64,000 nt of DNA, taken from a virus. The position numbers and the translations under genes are program-made. The notes below the pieces were generated by a model that did not search any database, was not told the DNA's origin, and saw nothing but the letters and a program-made list of their open reading frames with translations. The number at the start of each line of letters is the position of its first letter. Position 1 is the stretch's first letter. The stretch is from positions 78,039 through 142,038 of the IMG/VR virus record IMGVR_UViG_3300005683_000016; one strand, 5' to 3'. Shown here in pieces: positions 1-23,246 of the stretch.

Positions 1-121
1 TGGAGTGGTACGACCTCAACTCGTATAATCTTTGTTGCAGATATTGATGAAAACATGAAAAGATGTTCTGAGAGTCTTTTAAAAAGGTATCAAAAAGCAA
101 AAGAAATTTTATTAAAAATAT

Positions 122-556
122 AAAACATTCACTCCGTAAAGTCTCAGTCTTTAACAGGACTCATCACAATTCCTTTAACGTAACATAAGTTGGTGGAACA
201 ACAGGCTTAGGTCTGTCTCACAAGTATGGTGGAAGTTTGGTTGGTAAAGACAGGAGATAATGTAATCCGAAAGGATTGGCAGCAGATGGACATTGTGTTC
301 TTAGAACATAAATAGGTCAATACAAGATGAACAGATTAAATGCTGTTATGCTTGGACGTTTCCTTATCTGCCTTTTCAAGGTAACACTTTCAAACCAGTA
401 ATGGTGAGATAATGAAGAGTATACATGTGGCAAAAGTGTTCCAGTAAGAGCATACCCACCTGACAGGGTAATTCCAGTTTCCAAATTGTATAAGGAAACA
501 AACGGGTTAGGATATAATTGTGCAGACGCCCTAATAGTTAGGCTAAGGGTGTAACA
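122..556 (+). ncRNA. Large structured ncRNA, unit A (unknown family)
   Basis: No credible ORF. Shares ordered conserved blocks with unit C (1199-1638), including an identical 30-mer at 395-424 and 1511-1540, with compensatory changes in helices. Confidence 0.75.
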
Positions 557-1192
557 ACTCCCAATCATTGGGTTAAATGGTAGTTATCAGTTACTTTAAC
601 TGATTTAGTTTACCTGTTTGTATAAATTTAACAGGAGTTCTTGTACATACAAGTGTTGTTACTTTTTCCAGCAGTCAGAAAAAAGCGTGTAATCTACGAG
701 ATAAGATTAACCTACTGTACTTAGGTTTGAGGGTAGTTCCATGTACAACATTGAACCGAAAGGTATCATGTAAGCCCTTAAGTGGGATAAATTGAGTTAA
801 ATTGTGTTAGGTTGAAAATATACCTGTAAGAAATAATACATTTTTCGCATTTGTGAGATTTGTTAAGGTTCTTCCACAATAATATCCTACACTCAACGAT
901 GGCAGCCGGGTTGGAACCCACAGTAGATAAATAACTATACTCTTTTAGGGAGTGAAGTCAGTGTAGTTTTACTGAAAAAGTTAGTATTTATTAGACTGTT
1001 TAATAGGCGTTTTGTATATTGTAAAGTTGAATTTGTATCATAGAGAATCTGTGGGTGGATTTGCCTAATGTTAGGTGAGAGTAAGTTCGATCCTTACCGT
1101 TGATATAAATTTAACAGATATACAATCCTATACTATATAAGTCTGATCAACTTATGTAGTAATTGTGCGACCCACATTATTGTGGGTGACAT
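557..1192 (+). ncRNA. Large structured ncRNA, unit B (divergent paralog or distinct ornate RNA)
   Basis: Dense hairpins; T-loop-like GTTCGATCC at ~1085; shares TGGCAGC...TGCC and TATAC-helix-TAATTGTGC-hairpin-ACA with units A and C. Confidence 0.6.
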
Positions 1193-1198
1193 TTTTTA

Positions 1199-1638
1199 AA
1201 AACATCCACTCTGTAAAGTCTTGTAATTCGCGGAAGGTTTAACCAAATATTCTCTCTTTGGGGATAAAAAAGGTGAGAATCCTTTTTCTGTGTATAGACA
1301 GGAGATGATGTAAACCAATAATATGGTTTGGCAGCAGATGGACATTGTTATTTCTTAAATGAACTAATAAATAGGTTACTGTTCAACTTATATAAGTTGA
1401 AAGAGATTTCCTTATCTGCCTCTTCACGTTAATAGCGTTCAAGATACACTATGACCGTTGTGAAATTCAACAGGAACTACTGATTCTATACCAATCAGAG
1501 TAGTGTACATCCAGTAATGGTGAGATAATGAAGAGTATACTAAGGGTAGTCCGTAATTCAGAAATGAATTAGAGTGGGAAAATAGACTTATAAAAATCCT
1601 ACCTTAGTAATTGTGCGGCATCCCAAGTGGATGCAACA
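1199..1638 (+). ncRNA. Large structured ncRNA, unit C (paralog of unit A)
   Basis: Blocks ACATCCACTCTGTAAAGTCT, AGACAGGAGAT, TTGGCAGCAGATGGACATTGT, TTTCCTTATCTGCCT and CCAGTAATGGTGAGATAATGAAGAGTATAC recur in the same order as in unit A. Confidence 0.75.
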
Positions 1639-1651
1639 TTTATTAACAAAA

Positions 1652-1685
1652 TTTTAACTTTTAACTTTTAACTTTTAACTTTTAA
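1652..1685. repeat. Tandem heptamer repeat (TTTTAAC) x ~4.9
   Basis: ttttaacttttaacttttaacttttaacttttaa read directly. Confidence 0.9.
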
Positions 1686-1698
1686 AATTGTAACGGAC

Positions 1699-2076
1699 AT
1701 GCAATTTACATTAGATCACAAAGTAGGAACAAACTATGTAACTGTCACTTTAAGTGGAAAAGTATCTCCACTTATATGGTGTGAGTTTTTCACAAAACTC
1801 CAATATCTTGGAGGAAAACAAGCAGTAGAAGGACAGTCGGATATTTGGCTGTTACCTACTTTTGTTACATCACAAGTCATTGAAGAAATCATCCATAACA
1901 CATGTTTCGTGTGTGGTGGATTGATGAAAGATTCTACTGCATTTTTGAATGACTGTGTATCATTCGATGATTTTGGTAATGATGCTGGACAACGAGGTAC
2001 AACACAATCACGTGTTGGAGAAGCAAAACAAGTCAAAGTTCGCAAGTGCTCTTCTTGCGGACACTCACACACTTAA
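1699..2076 (+). CDS. Hypothetical protein with two CxxC pairs (putative zinc ribbon)
   Basis: CFVC and CSSC motifs. Confidence 0.6.
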   Translation: MQFTLDHKVGTNYVTVTLSGKVSPLIWCEFFTKLQYLGGKQAVEGQSDIWLLPTFVTSQVIEEIIHNTCFVCGGLMKDSTAFLNDCVSFDDFGNDAGQRGTTQSRVGEAKQVKVRKCSSCGHSHT

Positions 2077-2080
2077 AAAC

Positions 2081-2247
2081 AAAACAGGTGTAAGGGGGTG
2101 GAACCTTACTTTAAATGCTACCAACATTGGTTGGCCTCCAGGCATGGATGGGTCTAAAGTTCTTAAAGAACAGGGGTGAATAATGCTTAGAAGTCTGTTA
2201 AAAGACAACTTATAGTAGAATATCTCCCATGAAGGCATTACTGTTTT
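2081..2247 (+). ncRNA. Putative ~165 nt structured intergenic RNA
   Basis: Closing AAAACAG/CTGTTTT; internal stems GTAAGG/CCTTAC, CCAAC/GTTGG, GTTCT/AGAAC, TAATGCTT/AGGCATTA, CATGG/CCATG. Confidence 0.45.
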
Positions 2248-2444
2248 TAAAACAAGCAAACTATGAACAAGATATTGGGAGCATTTAATATAACACGAGA
2301 GTATGATGGACGTGAAGTAGACTATATTGGATTTTTATCTTGTACAGACGGAGAATGGGTCGGATCAGGAGAATCTACATGTATACGATATGTAGAATGG
2401 TTGATCCACACCAATCAGATTCCAAATTAAAAAAACAATAAAAT

Positions 2445-3348: not shown

Positions 3349-3434
3349 GCTCCTGTGGCGAAATTGGCAGCACGCTGCGGTCTTAAACACCGTTGGAGAA
3401 ATCCGTAAGGGTTCAAGTCCCTTCAGGAGCACCA
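3349..3434 (+). tRNA. trnL: tRNA-Leu (TAA)
   Basis: Acceptor GCTCCTG/CAGGAGC plus ACCA; anticodon arm GCGGT-CTTAAAC-ACCGT; long variable arm; T loop GTTCAAGTC. Confidence 0.93.
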
Positions 3435-8473: not shown

Positions 8474-8581
8474 TTCTGCTTTTGTAATATCAGTAACACA
8501 AAATAATAATTATATAGCCACACTCAAGGTATTACCAGGCTGGTATTACAAAAGCACTTGAGATGTGGCTTTTTATTTATT

Positions 8582-9523
8582 ATGAAGATTAAAAGTTGGA
8601 CAGTAGAACAGTTAAAGTTATTAAAAAATCATTATGCGGACTCTAATATAAGTATAAAGGAGTTAAGCAAACTCATTGGTAGATCAGAACAGGCTATTAT
8701 CCAAAAGGCTTGTAAATTAAAAATTCATAGATTTAGTCAAATTAAGGATAGTAGTATAGAATTTTTAAAAAATAATTATCATAATTTACAAATACCTCAT
8801 AAAATCTTTGAAGCAGAGATTGGAAGGAGTTGGCCCACCATATTACTGCTTGCAAAAAGTTTAGGATTAAAGCGGACTATTTCTTATACACCCAACTCTA
8901 ATTATTTTAATAGTATTGACTGTTGGGAAAAATCTTACATAATAGGATTATTTTGGGCTGATGCGCATAATAGTATTATAGAAAATAGAATTTCAATAGG
9001 ATTACAGGAGCAAGATAAGCATATTCTCGAATCAATCAATAATATCATACAAAAAGATACACCTTTAATGTTTAAACCTGGTAGAATAGCGAAAGGTTAT
9101 AGACAAAAAAGTAAAAATCAATATGTTCTTAGAATAAGAGACAAAACAATTTCTCAGAAACTGTTAGAATATGGAATGACTTCGAATAAAACTAAAACTT
9201 TAAAATTTCCAACTTGTATCCCTGATCAATTTCTTTCTGCTTTTATCTTAGGTTATTTTGATGGAGATGGGTGTATTTATTTAGGTAAGAAATGTAGTAA
9301 TAAAGTATCTATTTGTGGGACTCTAAGTATGTTAACGGAAATAAAGAGGATATTAATTGAAAACTGTAATGTATCTGATGTTAAAATCAGACAAGTAGGA
9401 AATATATACGACATTGCTTGGAGTAAAAAAGAAGATTTAAAAAATATTAGAAGTTTTTTATACTCAAATGCTACTTTATATTTACAACGAAAATATAATA
9501 AATTTCATTCTATAGAAAATTAA
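8582..9523 (+). CDS. Free-standing LAGLIDADG homing endonuclease
   Basis: YIIGLFWADA and FILGYFDGDG motifs; N-terminal helical repeats; likely ATG at 8582. Confidence 0.9.
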   Translation: MKIKSWTVEQLKLLKNHYADSNISIKELSKLIGRSEQAIIQKACKLKIHRFSQIKDSSIEFLKNNYHNLQIPHKIFEAEIGRSWPTILLLAKSLGLKRTISYTPNSNYFNSIDCWEKSYIIGLFWADAHNSIIENRISIGLQEQDKHILESINNIIQKDTPLMFKPGRIAKGYRQKSKNQYVLRIRDKTISQKLLEYGMTSNKTKTLKFPTCIPDQFLSAFILGYFDGDGCIYLGKKCSNKVSICGTLSMLTEIKRILIENCNVSDVKIRQVGNIYDIAWSKKEDLKNIRSFLYSNATLYLQRKYNKFHSIEN

Positions 9524-20976: not shown

Positions 20977-23246
20977 CACGATTTGAATATGCACAAGAAG
21001 TGGCTATGCTTAGTGATAGGTATAGCCACTTTCTTTTAGATCTGGTTCCGAGATTCGGGAAAAGTTTAATATGTACAGAGTTGATTAAGAGATGGAATCC
21101 TGAAAAGATTCTAATCTTAAGTGGAGCAAATTCTACTAATAGTCAGTGGATTGAAAATCTTGAAAAATATAATCCTGATCTTCTTGAGATCACTGACATC
21201 TATTGTTATCAGTCTGCCCACAAACTTGAGGACATATATGATGTAATTTGTTTGGATAAGTTGCTTTGTCCAATTAAAACCTATTTAACTCAGGGAAACT
21301 CCTAATGGTTTATATACCAACTTTTCATAGTAATATAGAAAAGGGCTGAACTAACTACTCAGATATGGTAAAAAGTGTAAACATAGATGTAAATCTTAAT
21401 GGACAATCCTGATCCAAGCGTCTTTAAAGAAAGATGAAGGAGCAACGACTATCCCGGAAGGGAGTACACTTAATAATTTAAGTGGAAAAGGTAGGAATTT
21501 TATATACGCAAAACTTATTTTTGCATCTTAATATAAAACTTAAGATGCAATGAAAAATTATCAAATTTATTGTTTAAAAGATCCTATATCACTTGAAATA
21601 CGATATATAGGAGTAACACAACGTTCTTTAAAAGAAAGGTTTTATCAACATTTATGGGAATCTAAAAACTTAAACGGTACTCATAAAAGACATTGGATTA
21701 AAACTCTTCTTTCTGAAAAATTAAAACCTATTATTGAAACAATTGAATATTGTAGTGAAGATACATGGGAAGAGAGAGAACAATATTGGATTTCTCAATA
21801 CAAAAATCTTACTAATACTAAAGAAGGAGGAACTGGTGTAGTAATAAATAGAGAAATATCTTCTGTAGAAAGAAGTGCGGCTGCTCATAAAAAACAAATT
21901 TGTCAATTAGATCACCAAGGTAAATTTATAAGATTTTGGGACAGTGTGGCCGATGCTGCCAGAGGACTTAATTCGAAAAAAGATGCTATTTACAGAGCCA
22001 TTAGGAAACTAAATAACTCTGCGGTGGGCTTTTGTTGGTGTTACCCGCATGAATTAGAAACTTTTATATCAAAAGTAAAAAATAAAGAAGATCTAATTAG
22101 TAATTTTCAAAAAACATACAAGGTGAAAATTATTGACTATGATGGTATTGAACATTACTTTGATTCAGCAACAAAAGCAGCAAATCATTTTAAATGTAAC
22201 GTTTCTTTTATCTCTATGTTACTATCAGGTATAAGAAAATCTAAAAAAATTTTTTTAATCGAGCGTATATAAAATTAAGATATAGTCTACTGTAGGAAGC
22301 AGACCTTCTTACGACAAATAGATTAGACTATCTCAAAGAGTTAAATCCAAGGCATTGGATTGGAATGAGTGGAACTCTTGAGGAAGAGCATATAGACTTC
22401 TTCAGGTTCTTAACTAAAGGAAAATTCTACCATGCTAAAGTTGAGTTTGAACAAGCAGTTGAATGGGGAATATTACCTGCTCCCAAGATTTATTCGGTGA
22501 GTCTTCAAATGGACAACACTAAAAGGTATCTTTTATTTGAGAAAGGGAAGGACAAGAAAAAAAAGAATCTTATCGTTCCTTTTAATGAGAGATGGACTGC
22601 TTTTAAGGACAAATCTAAAAATGCTCTGATTCAGTGTACTGAATTAGAATACCATCAGTTGATTTGCGAAGAGTTCGAAAAGTGGAAAGGATTCGAATCC
22701 GAGTTTGAACTCCCTTACAACGAAAGAAGCGAGTTTATTAGGATGATGCAAACCAAGGGATTTAATCAAGTCACTTGTCGAGACAAAAAAATGAGAATAG
22801 GCAATGACAGAAAGAAGTTTTTTGCAAACATCAAAAACAGATGGTTCACTAAACTTTATACGCAGTTACCTAAAGGGTCACGGGTGTTGGTTTTCTGCAA
22901 TGATATTGCACAGGCAGAACTCCTTAACAAAGAGTTCAGTGTGCATTCCAAGAATGATTCAGAAACCAACGAAAGTCTTATTGAGAGATTTAACAACAAA
23001 GAGATTAACGTCTTACACAGCGTTAATTCTTTAGCACGAGGAGTGGATTTTGTAGATGTGGACTATTTGATTATAGTTCAGTCTTCTATGAAACAAGGTA
23101 CTCAGATTCAAAAGTTTGCAAGGAGCGGTCTTAGTATTGCTCCCAAGACTATTCTGATGTACTATCCACAGACTCAAGATGAGAAATACGTTAATAAATT
23201 TTTAGAACAGTTTAAACCAGAATGGATAATCAGGAAAACACTGTAA
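20973..23246 (+). CDS. SF2 DEAD-type helicase, spliced: join(20973..21257,22296..23246), 411 aa
   Basis: Walker A PRFGKS; splicing joins ICLD to EADLL in frame, restoring DEAD; motif III MSGT; motif V ARGVD. Confidence 0.88.
21516..21550 (+). promoter_or_regulatory. Internal promoter plus start-sequestering hairpin for intron endonuclease
   Basis: TATTTTTG (21516-21523) overlaps the 5' arm of the perfect 11-bp stem TTGCATCTTAA/TTAAGATGCAA, which ends on the A of the ATG. Confidence 0.7.
21550..22272 (+). CDS. Intron-encoded GIY-YIG homing endonuclease with NUMOD1-like repeats
   Basis: QIY...RYIG...R..QH, EQYWI, and WDSVADAARGL / FDSATKAANHF repeats. Confidence 0.9.
   Translation: MKNYQIYCLKDPISLEIRYIGVTQRSLKERFYQHLWESKNLNGTHKRHWIKTLLSEKLKPIIETIEYCSEDTWEEREQYWISQYKNLTNTKEGGTGVVINREISSVERSAAAHKKQICQLDHQGKFIRFWDSVADAARGLNSKKDAIYRAIRKLNNSAVGFCWCYPHELETFISKVKNKEDLISNFQKTYKVKIIDYDGIEHYFDSATKAANHFKCNVSFISMLLSGIRKSKKIFLIERI

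Follow-up and report, generated by a model that had tools for sequence, protein, structure and literature searches.

What does a phage make from a stretch of DNA that codes for no credible protein? The question is raised by the first part of a 64,000-nucleotide (nt) sequence, hereafter the window, that runs from base 78039 to the last base, 142038, of an IMG/VR virus record rated as complete (IMGVR_UViG_3300005683_000016; 142,038 bp; L128 denotes a piece of it). By its sequence, the source is an uncultivated crAss-like phage, or a member of a lineage related to these abundant and widespread phages; its DNA polymerase is ~28% identical to those of crAss-like phages. An initial annotation described here a tandem array of three paralogous, large and ornate non-coding RNAs, termed units A, B and C. 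The array is almost certainly a genuine conserved locus of large structured RNAs, uncatalogued in Rfam 15. It does consist of tandem related units with a common 3' module and layout; these are, however, not three versions of a single RNA but members of two classes, type-1 (A and C) and type-2 (B).

Coding capacity and limits of the array

The absence of a credible open reading frame (ORF) is borne out, as none longer than 83 amino acids occurs within 124-1698. A minus-strand ORF of that length (317-568) was considered and discarded: its tblastn matches in homologs track the conserved nucleotide blocks, and its frame is not maintained. The longest stop-free stretches span 44-96 codons and are not conserved among homologs, in which the lengths between conserved anchors differ by non-multiples of three (e.g. 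105, 82, 109, 84, 26 and 113). The ORF-free RNA stretch is thus real, but its limits were drawn too narrowly: it begins at genome position 77600, ~440 nt upstream of the window, and includes a Hatchet ribozyme.

Homologs in uncultivated phages

The RNAs belong to no recognised family, as had been proposed. At gathering thresholds, Rfam 15 identifies just the tRNA in the whole window, while a cmscan of window 1-2400 against all 4227 families at E<=10 returns chance-level matches to unrelated small families only; GOLLD, ROOL, OLE and the group I/II introns are among the models giving no family match. Blastn of the same 2400 nt against 50,697 GenBank phage records yields no match, and a 14-mer scan of IMG/VR yields chance matches only. 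We found no publication describing these RNAs, short anonymous fragments of which may sit in a collection of short candidate structured RNAs published in 2023 and drawn from IMG/VR (PMC10690425).

Homologs were gathered through block patterns and synteny, and are present in ~15 further contigs of uncultivated phages. Scans for exact blocks in IMG/VR and in JGI metagenomes lead to contigs L130, L132/L211, L131/L195/L207, L205 and L206/L210, in which the blocks follow one another in order. Contigs encoding homologs of a 125-amino-acid CxxC protein contribute further members (L214, L220, L222, L225 and others), and a type-2 pattern search adds L234 and L235. The nhmmer E-values range from 1e-46 to 1e-112 for type-1 (1.7e-98 for copy A, 4.4e-77 for copy C) and from 1e-11 to 1e-100 for type-2.

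The genome under study holds one type-2 and two type-1 copies, no others having been found in it. Type-2 is present in all related loci, usually directly upstream of a type-1 unit, and the usual order of the locus is type-2, type-1 and tRNA genes. More distant contigs harbor type-2 without type-1 (L216, L227, L229, L231, L232/L236, L234 and L235), and L225 holds two type-2 copies. In bacterial genomes, the strict type-2 pattern retrieves a single 4.4-kb contig, binned with a Flavobacterium metagenome-assembled genome; the type-2 hidden Markov model (HMM) does not confirm it, and this hint at the host is therefore weak.

The type-1 RNA

Type-1 measures ~435 nt and is represented on the plus strand by copies A (125-556) and C (1202-1638), both delineated by blocks, nhmmer and anchored pair counts, over 10 homologs in the case of A. 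As first reported, the two copies share all the conserved blocks in identical order, with an identical 30-mer at 395-424 and 1511-1540. From the 5' to the 3' end, copy A is formed by a P1 domain (ACAUU..AAUGU), a P2 hairpin with a GAAA loop and a P3 domain (GGCAG..CUGCC), followed by P4 (UUUUCA..UGAAGA) around a CCA-GUAA-UGG hairpin and the strand UGAGAUAA, and finally by P6, AUUGUGC, P7 with a 13-nt loop AAUAGUUAGGCUA, and ACA. In copy C, the P1 insert is shorter, P5 contains a three-way-junction insert and P7 bears a CAAGU loop; a U-rich tail comes next.

Across the class, P1 is a long irregular hairpin (ACAUU/AAUGU, CUCC/GGAG, GUCU/AGAC) with a distal insert that reaches 100 nt in length and shrinks in L214 to a UUUU tetraloop. 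The P2 hairpin varies, is often GNRA-capped and is missing from L225, and P3 (GGCAG/CUGCC) closes a variable domain. P4 (UCUUCA/UGAAGA) surrounds the variable P5, a CCA-GNRA-UGG hairpin and UGAGAUAA, which is invariant. P6 is anchored between GAGUA and AUUGUGC, its sequence differing in nearly every member, and the 3' module reads UGU-GC-R-P7-A-ACA. The L214 type-1 is naturally minimised, its P1 insert being reduced to the tetraloop and its P6 to a 6-bp hairpin. In the P5 arm of the L211 type-1 lies an element of 164 nt, interpreted by ARAGORN as a tRNA-like cloverleaf of class II containing an insert of 78 nt; by eye, the L214 type-1 possesses an element resembling this domain.

The pairs of this structure were defined solely by their distance from conserved anchors in 10 sequences. 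Standard pairs form in 92.1% of cells, and 17 of the 45 pairs are compensatory, against 8.9+-1.8 in shuffles, none of 1000 shuffles reaching 17. A first-pass tally, in which the P3 register was one base off, gave 87% of paired cells as compared to 36-48% with the partner slid by 1-3 nt. The covariations initially noticed between A and C (ACAUU/AAUGU versus ACAUC/GAUGU, the P2 hairpins, and CUUUUCA or CUCUUCA versus UGAAGAG) hold, and the homologs extend them.

The type-2 RNA and its palindromic loop

Unit B, first assigned to 557-1192, proved to be a composite. A real structured RNA, the type-2 representative, occupies 748-1191 on the plus strand, while 557-747 is a separate spacer, X. Type-2 measures ~445 nt and has 17 members in all, 13 of which make up the MAFFT alignment A4 that supports B. 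Its 5' part opens with a P1 hairpin, whose GAAA loop is invariant, and continues with P2 and a variable domain, which most members close with UUGAGU/ACUCAA. Next comes GGCAGC, then a hairpin of 5 bp whose 7-nt loop, UUGGAUA, is T-loop-like in appearance. In the 3' part, P4 (UUGUAUAU/AUAUACAA) encloses a variable insert, which carries a T-arm mimic in B (1081-1097) and in L211. There follow AAUCCUA, P6, AUUGUGC, a mostly GNRA-capped P7, and ACA. In A4, 91.4% of cells are paired versus 26-48% in slid controls, 30 of 41 pairs display compensatory changes with both sides changed, and the covariation score is 0.55 versus at most 0.13; none of 500 shuffles reaches any of these measures.

P6 of B (1131-1161, plus strand), a 12-bp stem with the loop CUGAUCA containing the palindrome UGAUCA, is proposed as a kissing-loop dimerisation site. 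Nine of the 12 pairs of the type-2 P6 stem fully covary. The loop, 7-9 nt long, holds a self-complementary word of 4-6 nt, flanked by unpaired purines, in 17/17 true members. Five varieties are found: UGAUCA (B, L214, L235), GGCC (L130, L211, L220, L222, L225a), GUAC or UGUACA (L205, L210, L225b, L232, L234), UAAUUA (L216, L227, L229) and AGCU (L231), the two copies of L225 carrying different words. When all 20 pattern matches are considered, a palindrome of at least 4 nt occurs in 18, versus a mean of 9.1 in shuffled loops, and 0 of 5000 shuffles reach 18.

The dimerisation initiation site (DIS) of human immunodeficiency virus type 1 (HIV-1) is a kissing-loop dimer with a palindromic loop word. 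P6 resembles it by its 7-9-nt loop, its central self-complementary 4-6-mer and its unpaired flanking purines, and also because the word differs between lineages yet stays palindromic. It differs in belonging to a ~450-nt phage RNA instead of a retroviral genome, and its dimerisation is predicted. The DIS-like pattern, a word kept palindromic while its sequence varies, extends to every type-2 member and has the signature of a homotypic kissing loop; it suggests that type-2 dimerises via P6.

A second parallel is offered by the packaging RNA (pRNA) of phi29 (Ding et al. 2011, as cited in PMC12286853). This RNA of ~170 nt oligomerises, two different loops forming a ring on the portal. It is likewise a structured phage RNA, and from one phage to another its loop-loop pairing covaries as the sequence drifts. 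The single palindromic P6 loop, in contrast, predicts symmetric dimers, and there is no link to packaging genes.

Relation between the two classes

Both classes start with ACAU-N-...-AUGU, followed by a P2 hairpin, a GGCAGC motif, a long-range helix with an expandable insert and a P6 helix, and both end in an identical 3' module, AUUGUGC-P7(hairpin)-ACA. The sequence TAATTGTGC is found at 516, 1160 and 1609, in units A, B and C, respectively. The position held by the P1 GAAA loop in type-2 is taken in type-1 by a distal helix with a variable insert. Peripheral helices expand or vanish among members of both classes, and the covariation across homologs supports the view, already put forward in the initial annotation, of a conserved structured non-coding RNA with a fixed core and expandable peripheral helices. 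Neither the type-1 HMM nor the type-2 HMM detects the other class. Common descent is consequently likely but not proven, the case being made by the shared layout and the 3' module. A pairing of the type-1 P7 loop UUAGG with a type-2 CCUAA was also considered; it is unsupported, both words being invariant and the match being broken in L220 and in the window's own B.

RNA or DNA element

The G+C content is 31-35%. Genes run on the minus strand to the left of ~75 kb and on the plus strand to the right, which places the array near the head of the rightward gene block, a block that also contains many small uncharacterised ORFs. The array lies within a few kb of this divergent strand switch, and together with its many inverted repeats and the palindromic P6 centres this position could evoke an element acting as DNA, such as a replication origin or a packaging or recombination site. 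Such a reading is barely credible. The type-2 helices contain 33 G-U versus 11 A-C juxtapositions; this three-to-one excess, together with spacer lengths that break the frame, indicates an RNA read from the plus strand. GNRA loops are preserved as a class through changes (GUAA/GCAA), and compensatory changes maintain pairing amid free sequence drift. The features, the ribozymes and the tRNAs all lie on one strand, and there are no iterons, save a heptamer repeat that lies beyond the units.

The P7 hairpins of B and C, with the U-tracts that follow, score terminator-like on the plus strand. In B, the 3' module identified by a motif scan (1162-1197, plus strand) consists of AUUGUGC-G-P7(ACCCACA/UGUGGGU)-G-ACA followed by U6, and looks like an intrinsic terminator.

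Comparison with GOLLD and ROOL

To our knowledge, few classes of large ornate bacterial or phage RNAs have been described, GOLLD, ROOL, OLE, HEARO and raiA among them.

GOLLD is a large ornate phage RNA located near tRNA islands, with a conserved 3' and a variable 5' region, and it sometimes holds tRNAs in its linker; GOLLD and ROOL both assemble into RNA-only cages through RNA-RNA contacts (PMC12286853). The present RNAs share with GOLLD a length of more than 400 nt, an ornate structure, a phage origin, a place beside tRNA islands and the division into a conserved 3' and a variable 5' part, and some members of both carry a tRNA or tRNA-like element in the variable region, as the L211 type-1 does with its cloverleaf. 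They differ in being shorter, in occurring as two classes in tandem, in forming a chain of adjacent hairpin domains and in residing in crAss-like phages, and their assembly is only inferred. With ROOL they have in common a phage or prophage setting near tRNA islands and the lack of a known protein partner; ROOL forms an RNA-only cage. The multiple pseudoknots predicted for ROOL, on the other hand, are not detected here, where no systematic pseudoknot search was made.

In window 1-2400, the covariance models of GOLLD (RF01998) and ROOL (RF03087) give no match, either at gathering thresholds or at E<=10. The RNAs are for this reason kept outside these two families and filed as new classes of that kind. 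Group I and II intron models do not match either, and neither split ORFs nor tRNA halves flank the units. Two resemblances were considered and dropped: that to RNase P (AAAGUC, CAGAUGGA, GGUGAGA..GAAGAG), for which the block order is unfit and Rfam gives no match, and that to T-box or interdigitated T-loop structures, which no Rfam model supports.

A proposed self-assembling RNA system

In the explanation that we favor, the locus would be a polycistronic non-coding RNA unit read on the plus strand at the start of the rightward gene block, and its products would be stable, highly structured type-1 (A, C) and type-2 (B) RNAs along with the structured spacer X. The Hatchet ribozyme would cut the precursor free of the upstream mRNA, relatives using pistol, twister or hatchet likewise, and P7 with its U-tract would terminate some units. 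The RNAs would then act in trans as self-assembling particles: type-2 would self-pair by means of the palindrome in its P6 loop, in the manner of the HIV-1 dimerisation loop, and the invariant GNRA loops and T-loop-like hairpins would give further contacts. Their function may concern translation or the tRNAs expressed with them, a link also proposed for GOLLD and ROOL; some type-1 members carry a peripheral tRNA-like domain. Taken as a whole, the statement that the RNAs are released from a precursor that a ribozyme trims, are expressed together with tRNAs and assemble by themselves to act in trans stands at about even chances. A bolder version, in which type-2 and type-1 form a two-component RNA assembly built on the P6 dimer, the particle docking or sequestering tRNAs or ribosomes early in infection, is put forward tentatively, as possible rather than probable.

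Several observations weigh against this explanation. The folding energies of the single units are unremarkable (z = -1.4, -2.2 and -2.6), so that the evidence for structure is comparative, and the sequences in hand, 10 distinct type-1 and 17 type-2, are in many cases related. No covarying contact between type-1 and type-2 was found. No convincing palindromic loop was found in type-1, where the candidates are just AT-rich 4-mers without clear significance. At the DNA level, the P6 loop of type-2 might instead be the middle of a palindrome, with an inverted repeat continuing through it; this alternative agrees poorly with the unpaired or mismatched purines on either side and with the G-U pairs that the stem contains.

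If the two-component assembly were true, it would constitute a third class of RNA-only nanostructures next to GOLLD and ROOL, structurally unrelated to them, and the first to combine two different RNAs. The RNA-only cages of those two families make each new class a target for cryo-electron microscopy, and the locus gives two related new classes with strong covariation, minimised members (the L214 type-1) and a specific candidate dimerisation site. It also joins tRNA islands, clusters of self-cleaving ribozymes and giant non-coding RNAs in what would be one transcription unit.

Spacer X and the surrounding ribozymes

Spacer X (557-747, plus strand) is a structured RNA of ~190 nt in which an 11-bp stem closes around several hairpins. 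No gap separates it from its neighbours: A ends with ACA directly before it, and B starts with ACAUU directly after it. A segment of L205 (3046-3245, minus strand), located there between a type-2 and a type-1 unit, is 79% identical to it and abuts its two neighbours in the same way, one unit ending with ACA and the following one starting with ACAUU. X is shared with this one other contig only, and RNAalifold predicts 45 pairs, 8 of them compensatory, from two sequences only. To note, a hairpin loop of X (616-634) and the P4 insert of B (1099-1117) each contain one copy of the 19-nt repeat GUUKRUAUAAAUUUAACAG.

The Hatchet ribozyme (Rfam RF02678) covers genome positions 77894-78041 on the plus strand (L128:5895-6042), that is, window -144 to 3, its last 3 nt being window 1-3. 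It matches the full model (1-133) with 67 bits versus a gathering score of 51 and E=2.5e-12, and lies 120 nt upstream of unit A on the strand of the array. Hatchet self-cleaves at the base of its P1 (PMC6154101). A type III hammerhead is found 3.3 kb further upstream, in the divergent intergenic region (genome 74560-74614, L128:2561-2615, plus strand; 49.7 versus 48.5 bits). Relatives possess ribozymes upstream of, and on the same strand as, their RNA and tRNA region: a pistol in L222 (3803-3866) and a twister-P3 in L214 (850-914), L220 (2281-2342) and L225 (1494-1557). A hatchet is also present in L218 (4473-4537), a contig with the gene of the CxxC protein, a zinc-ribbon (Zn-ribbon) protein, and without any detectable RNA unit. 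Going by these model matches, the lineage is unusually rich in self-cleaving ribozymes.

Such surroundings raise the possibility that the units or X are new ribozymes themselves, self-cleaving at the flush junctions (ACA/ACU and RCA/ACAUU, cut at the slash) or acting in trans as tRNA processors. The hatchet, pistol, twister and hammerhead ribozymes lie in the same ribozyme-dense, phage-like context, and pistol and hatchet were reportedly first found in such neighbourhoods by Weinberg et al. in 2015. The flush position of X in two genomes and the invariance of the junction strands UGAGAUAA and AUUGUGC point in the same direction. The large RNAs, however, match none of these models, and at E<=10 neither the units nor X give a match to any known ribozyme model. 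Most arrays lack X, their units often abutting directly or being separated by U-tracts, and the architecture is a chain of adjacent hairpin domains, not a compact multi-helix core. No evidence here favors catalysis by the units, and this explanation is unlikely.

tRNA genes and possible tRNA mimicry

The proximity to tRNA genes claimed at the outset is confirmed. A tRNA-Leu(UAA), the sole tRNA of the genome, is identified by ARAGORN and Rfam at 3349-3434 (plus strand), 1.7 kb downstream of the array and on the same strand. Same-strand tRNA genes accompany the RNAs in every locus examined, usually downstream, at distances of 20 nt to a few kb (0.02-4 kb). Inside units A, B and C, neither ARAGORN nor the Rfam tRNA model detects a cloverleaf, the T-arm-like hairpin 1081-1097 of B being the only element of this type.

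This linkage may also be accommodated by monomeric ribonucleoproteins serving as tRNA-mimicking decoys or sponges, which would protect tRNAs of the phage or of the host or titrate a host anticodon nuclease, an RNase, a Ro-like protein or the ribosome. The T-arm mimics of B and L211 and the tRNA-like cloverleaf of L211, seen by eye in L214 too, fit this idea. So does the location of the array at the head of the rightward block with its many small ORFs, an early or host-takeover region if judged from position alone. Conversely, the tRNA-like parts belong to the periphery and are missing in most members, A and C included, the conserved core bears no likeness to tRNA, and no partner protein co-occurs consistently. 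A decoy role is accordingly rather unlikely. Among the neighbouring proteins examined, no RNA-repair or RNA-binding families were recognised.

Some tRNA genes of the relatives contain insertions of ~40-95 nt, and one is of suppressor type, with the anticodon UUA (L214:1497-1662; L233:7900-8010; L235:103-174). These genes hint at intron-bearing tRNAs and at a possible stop-codon recoding in the lineage.

The downstream Zn-ribbon gene

The conserved 125-amino-acid Zn-ribbon protein is encoded at 1699-2076 on the plus strand and displays a CxxC...CxxCGH arrangement. It has 163 homologs in uncultivated phages, with the invariant signature NTCFxCGG...VRKCxxCGHSHT and a SEC-C motif in one homolog; the protein of this genome has no Pfam match. 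Between unit C and this gene lies a tandem heptamer, TTTTAAC, repeated 4.9 times (1652-1685, plus strand; Tandem Repeats Finder score 68, 100% matches), and relatives retain UUAAC...UAAAAUUGUAACGGAUAUG ahead of the gene. The gene is often, not always, beside the RNAs, being absent near the type-2 of L234 and L235.

In this genome and in L214, L220, L222 and L229, 20-60 nt separate the end of a type-1 or type-2 unit from the Zn-ribbon ORF that follows, as would be expected of cis-acting leaders, giant 5' untranslated regions comparable to riboswitches, controlling this gene or the tRNA operon. The arrangement is not constant: the RNA is downstream of the ORF in L225 and L227, tRNA genes come ~20-240 nt after a unit in L211, L225 and L234, and no Zn-ribbon ORF is nearby in L234 and L235. 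A terminator-like P7 with its U-tract would moreover stand between RNA and ORF, and one leader would not need three tandem units. Control in cis is very unlikely, and trans-acting, self-assembling RNAs remain the explanation that we prefer.

Further features of the window

Immediately after the Zn-ribbon gene, a second ORF-free stretch of 186 nt (2077-2262) folds with z = -1.7. At the matching position L210 has a tRNA (2527-2602), none being detected in the window, where the stretch may be a decayed tRNA or another small RNA. Further downstream, LAGLIDADG-like and GIY-YIG/NUMOD homing endonuclease ORFs (8558-9523 and 21550-22272) are found amid replication and sugar-modification genes. The segment 9528-15874 encodes a cluster of glycosyltransferases, together with a polysaccharide-synthesis epimerase/dehydratase and two methyltransferases, that may serve the modification of DNA or of surface glycans.

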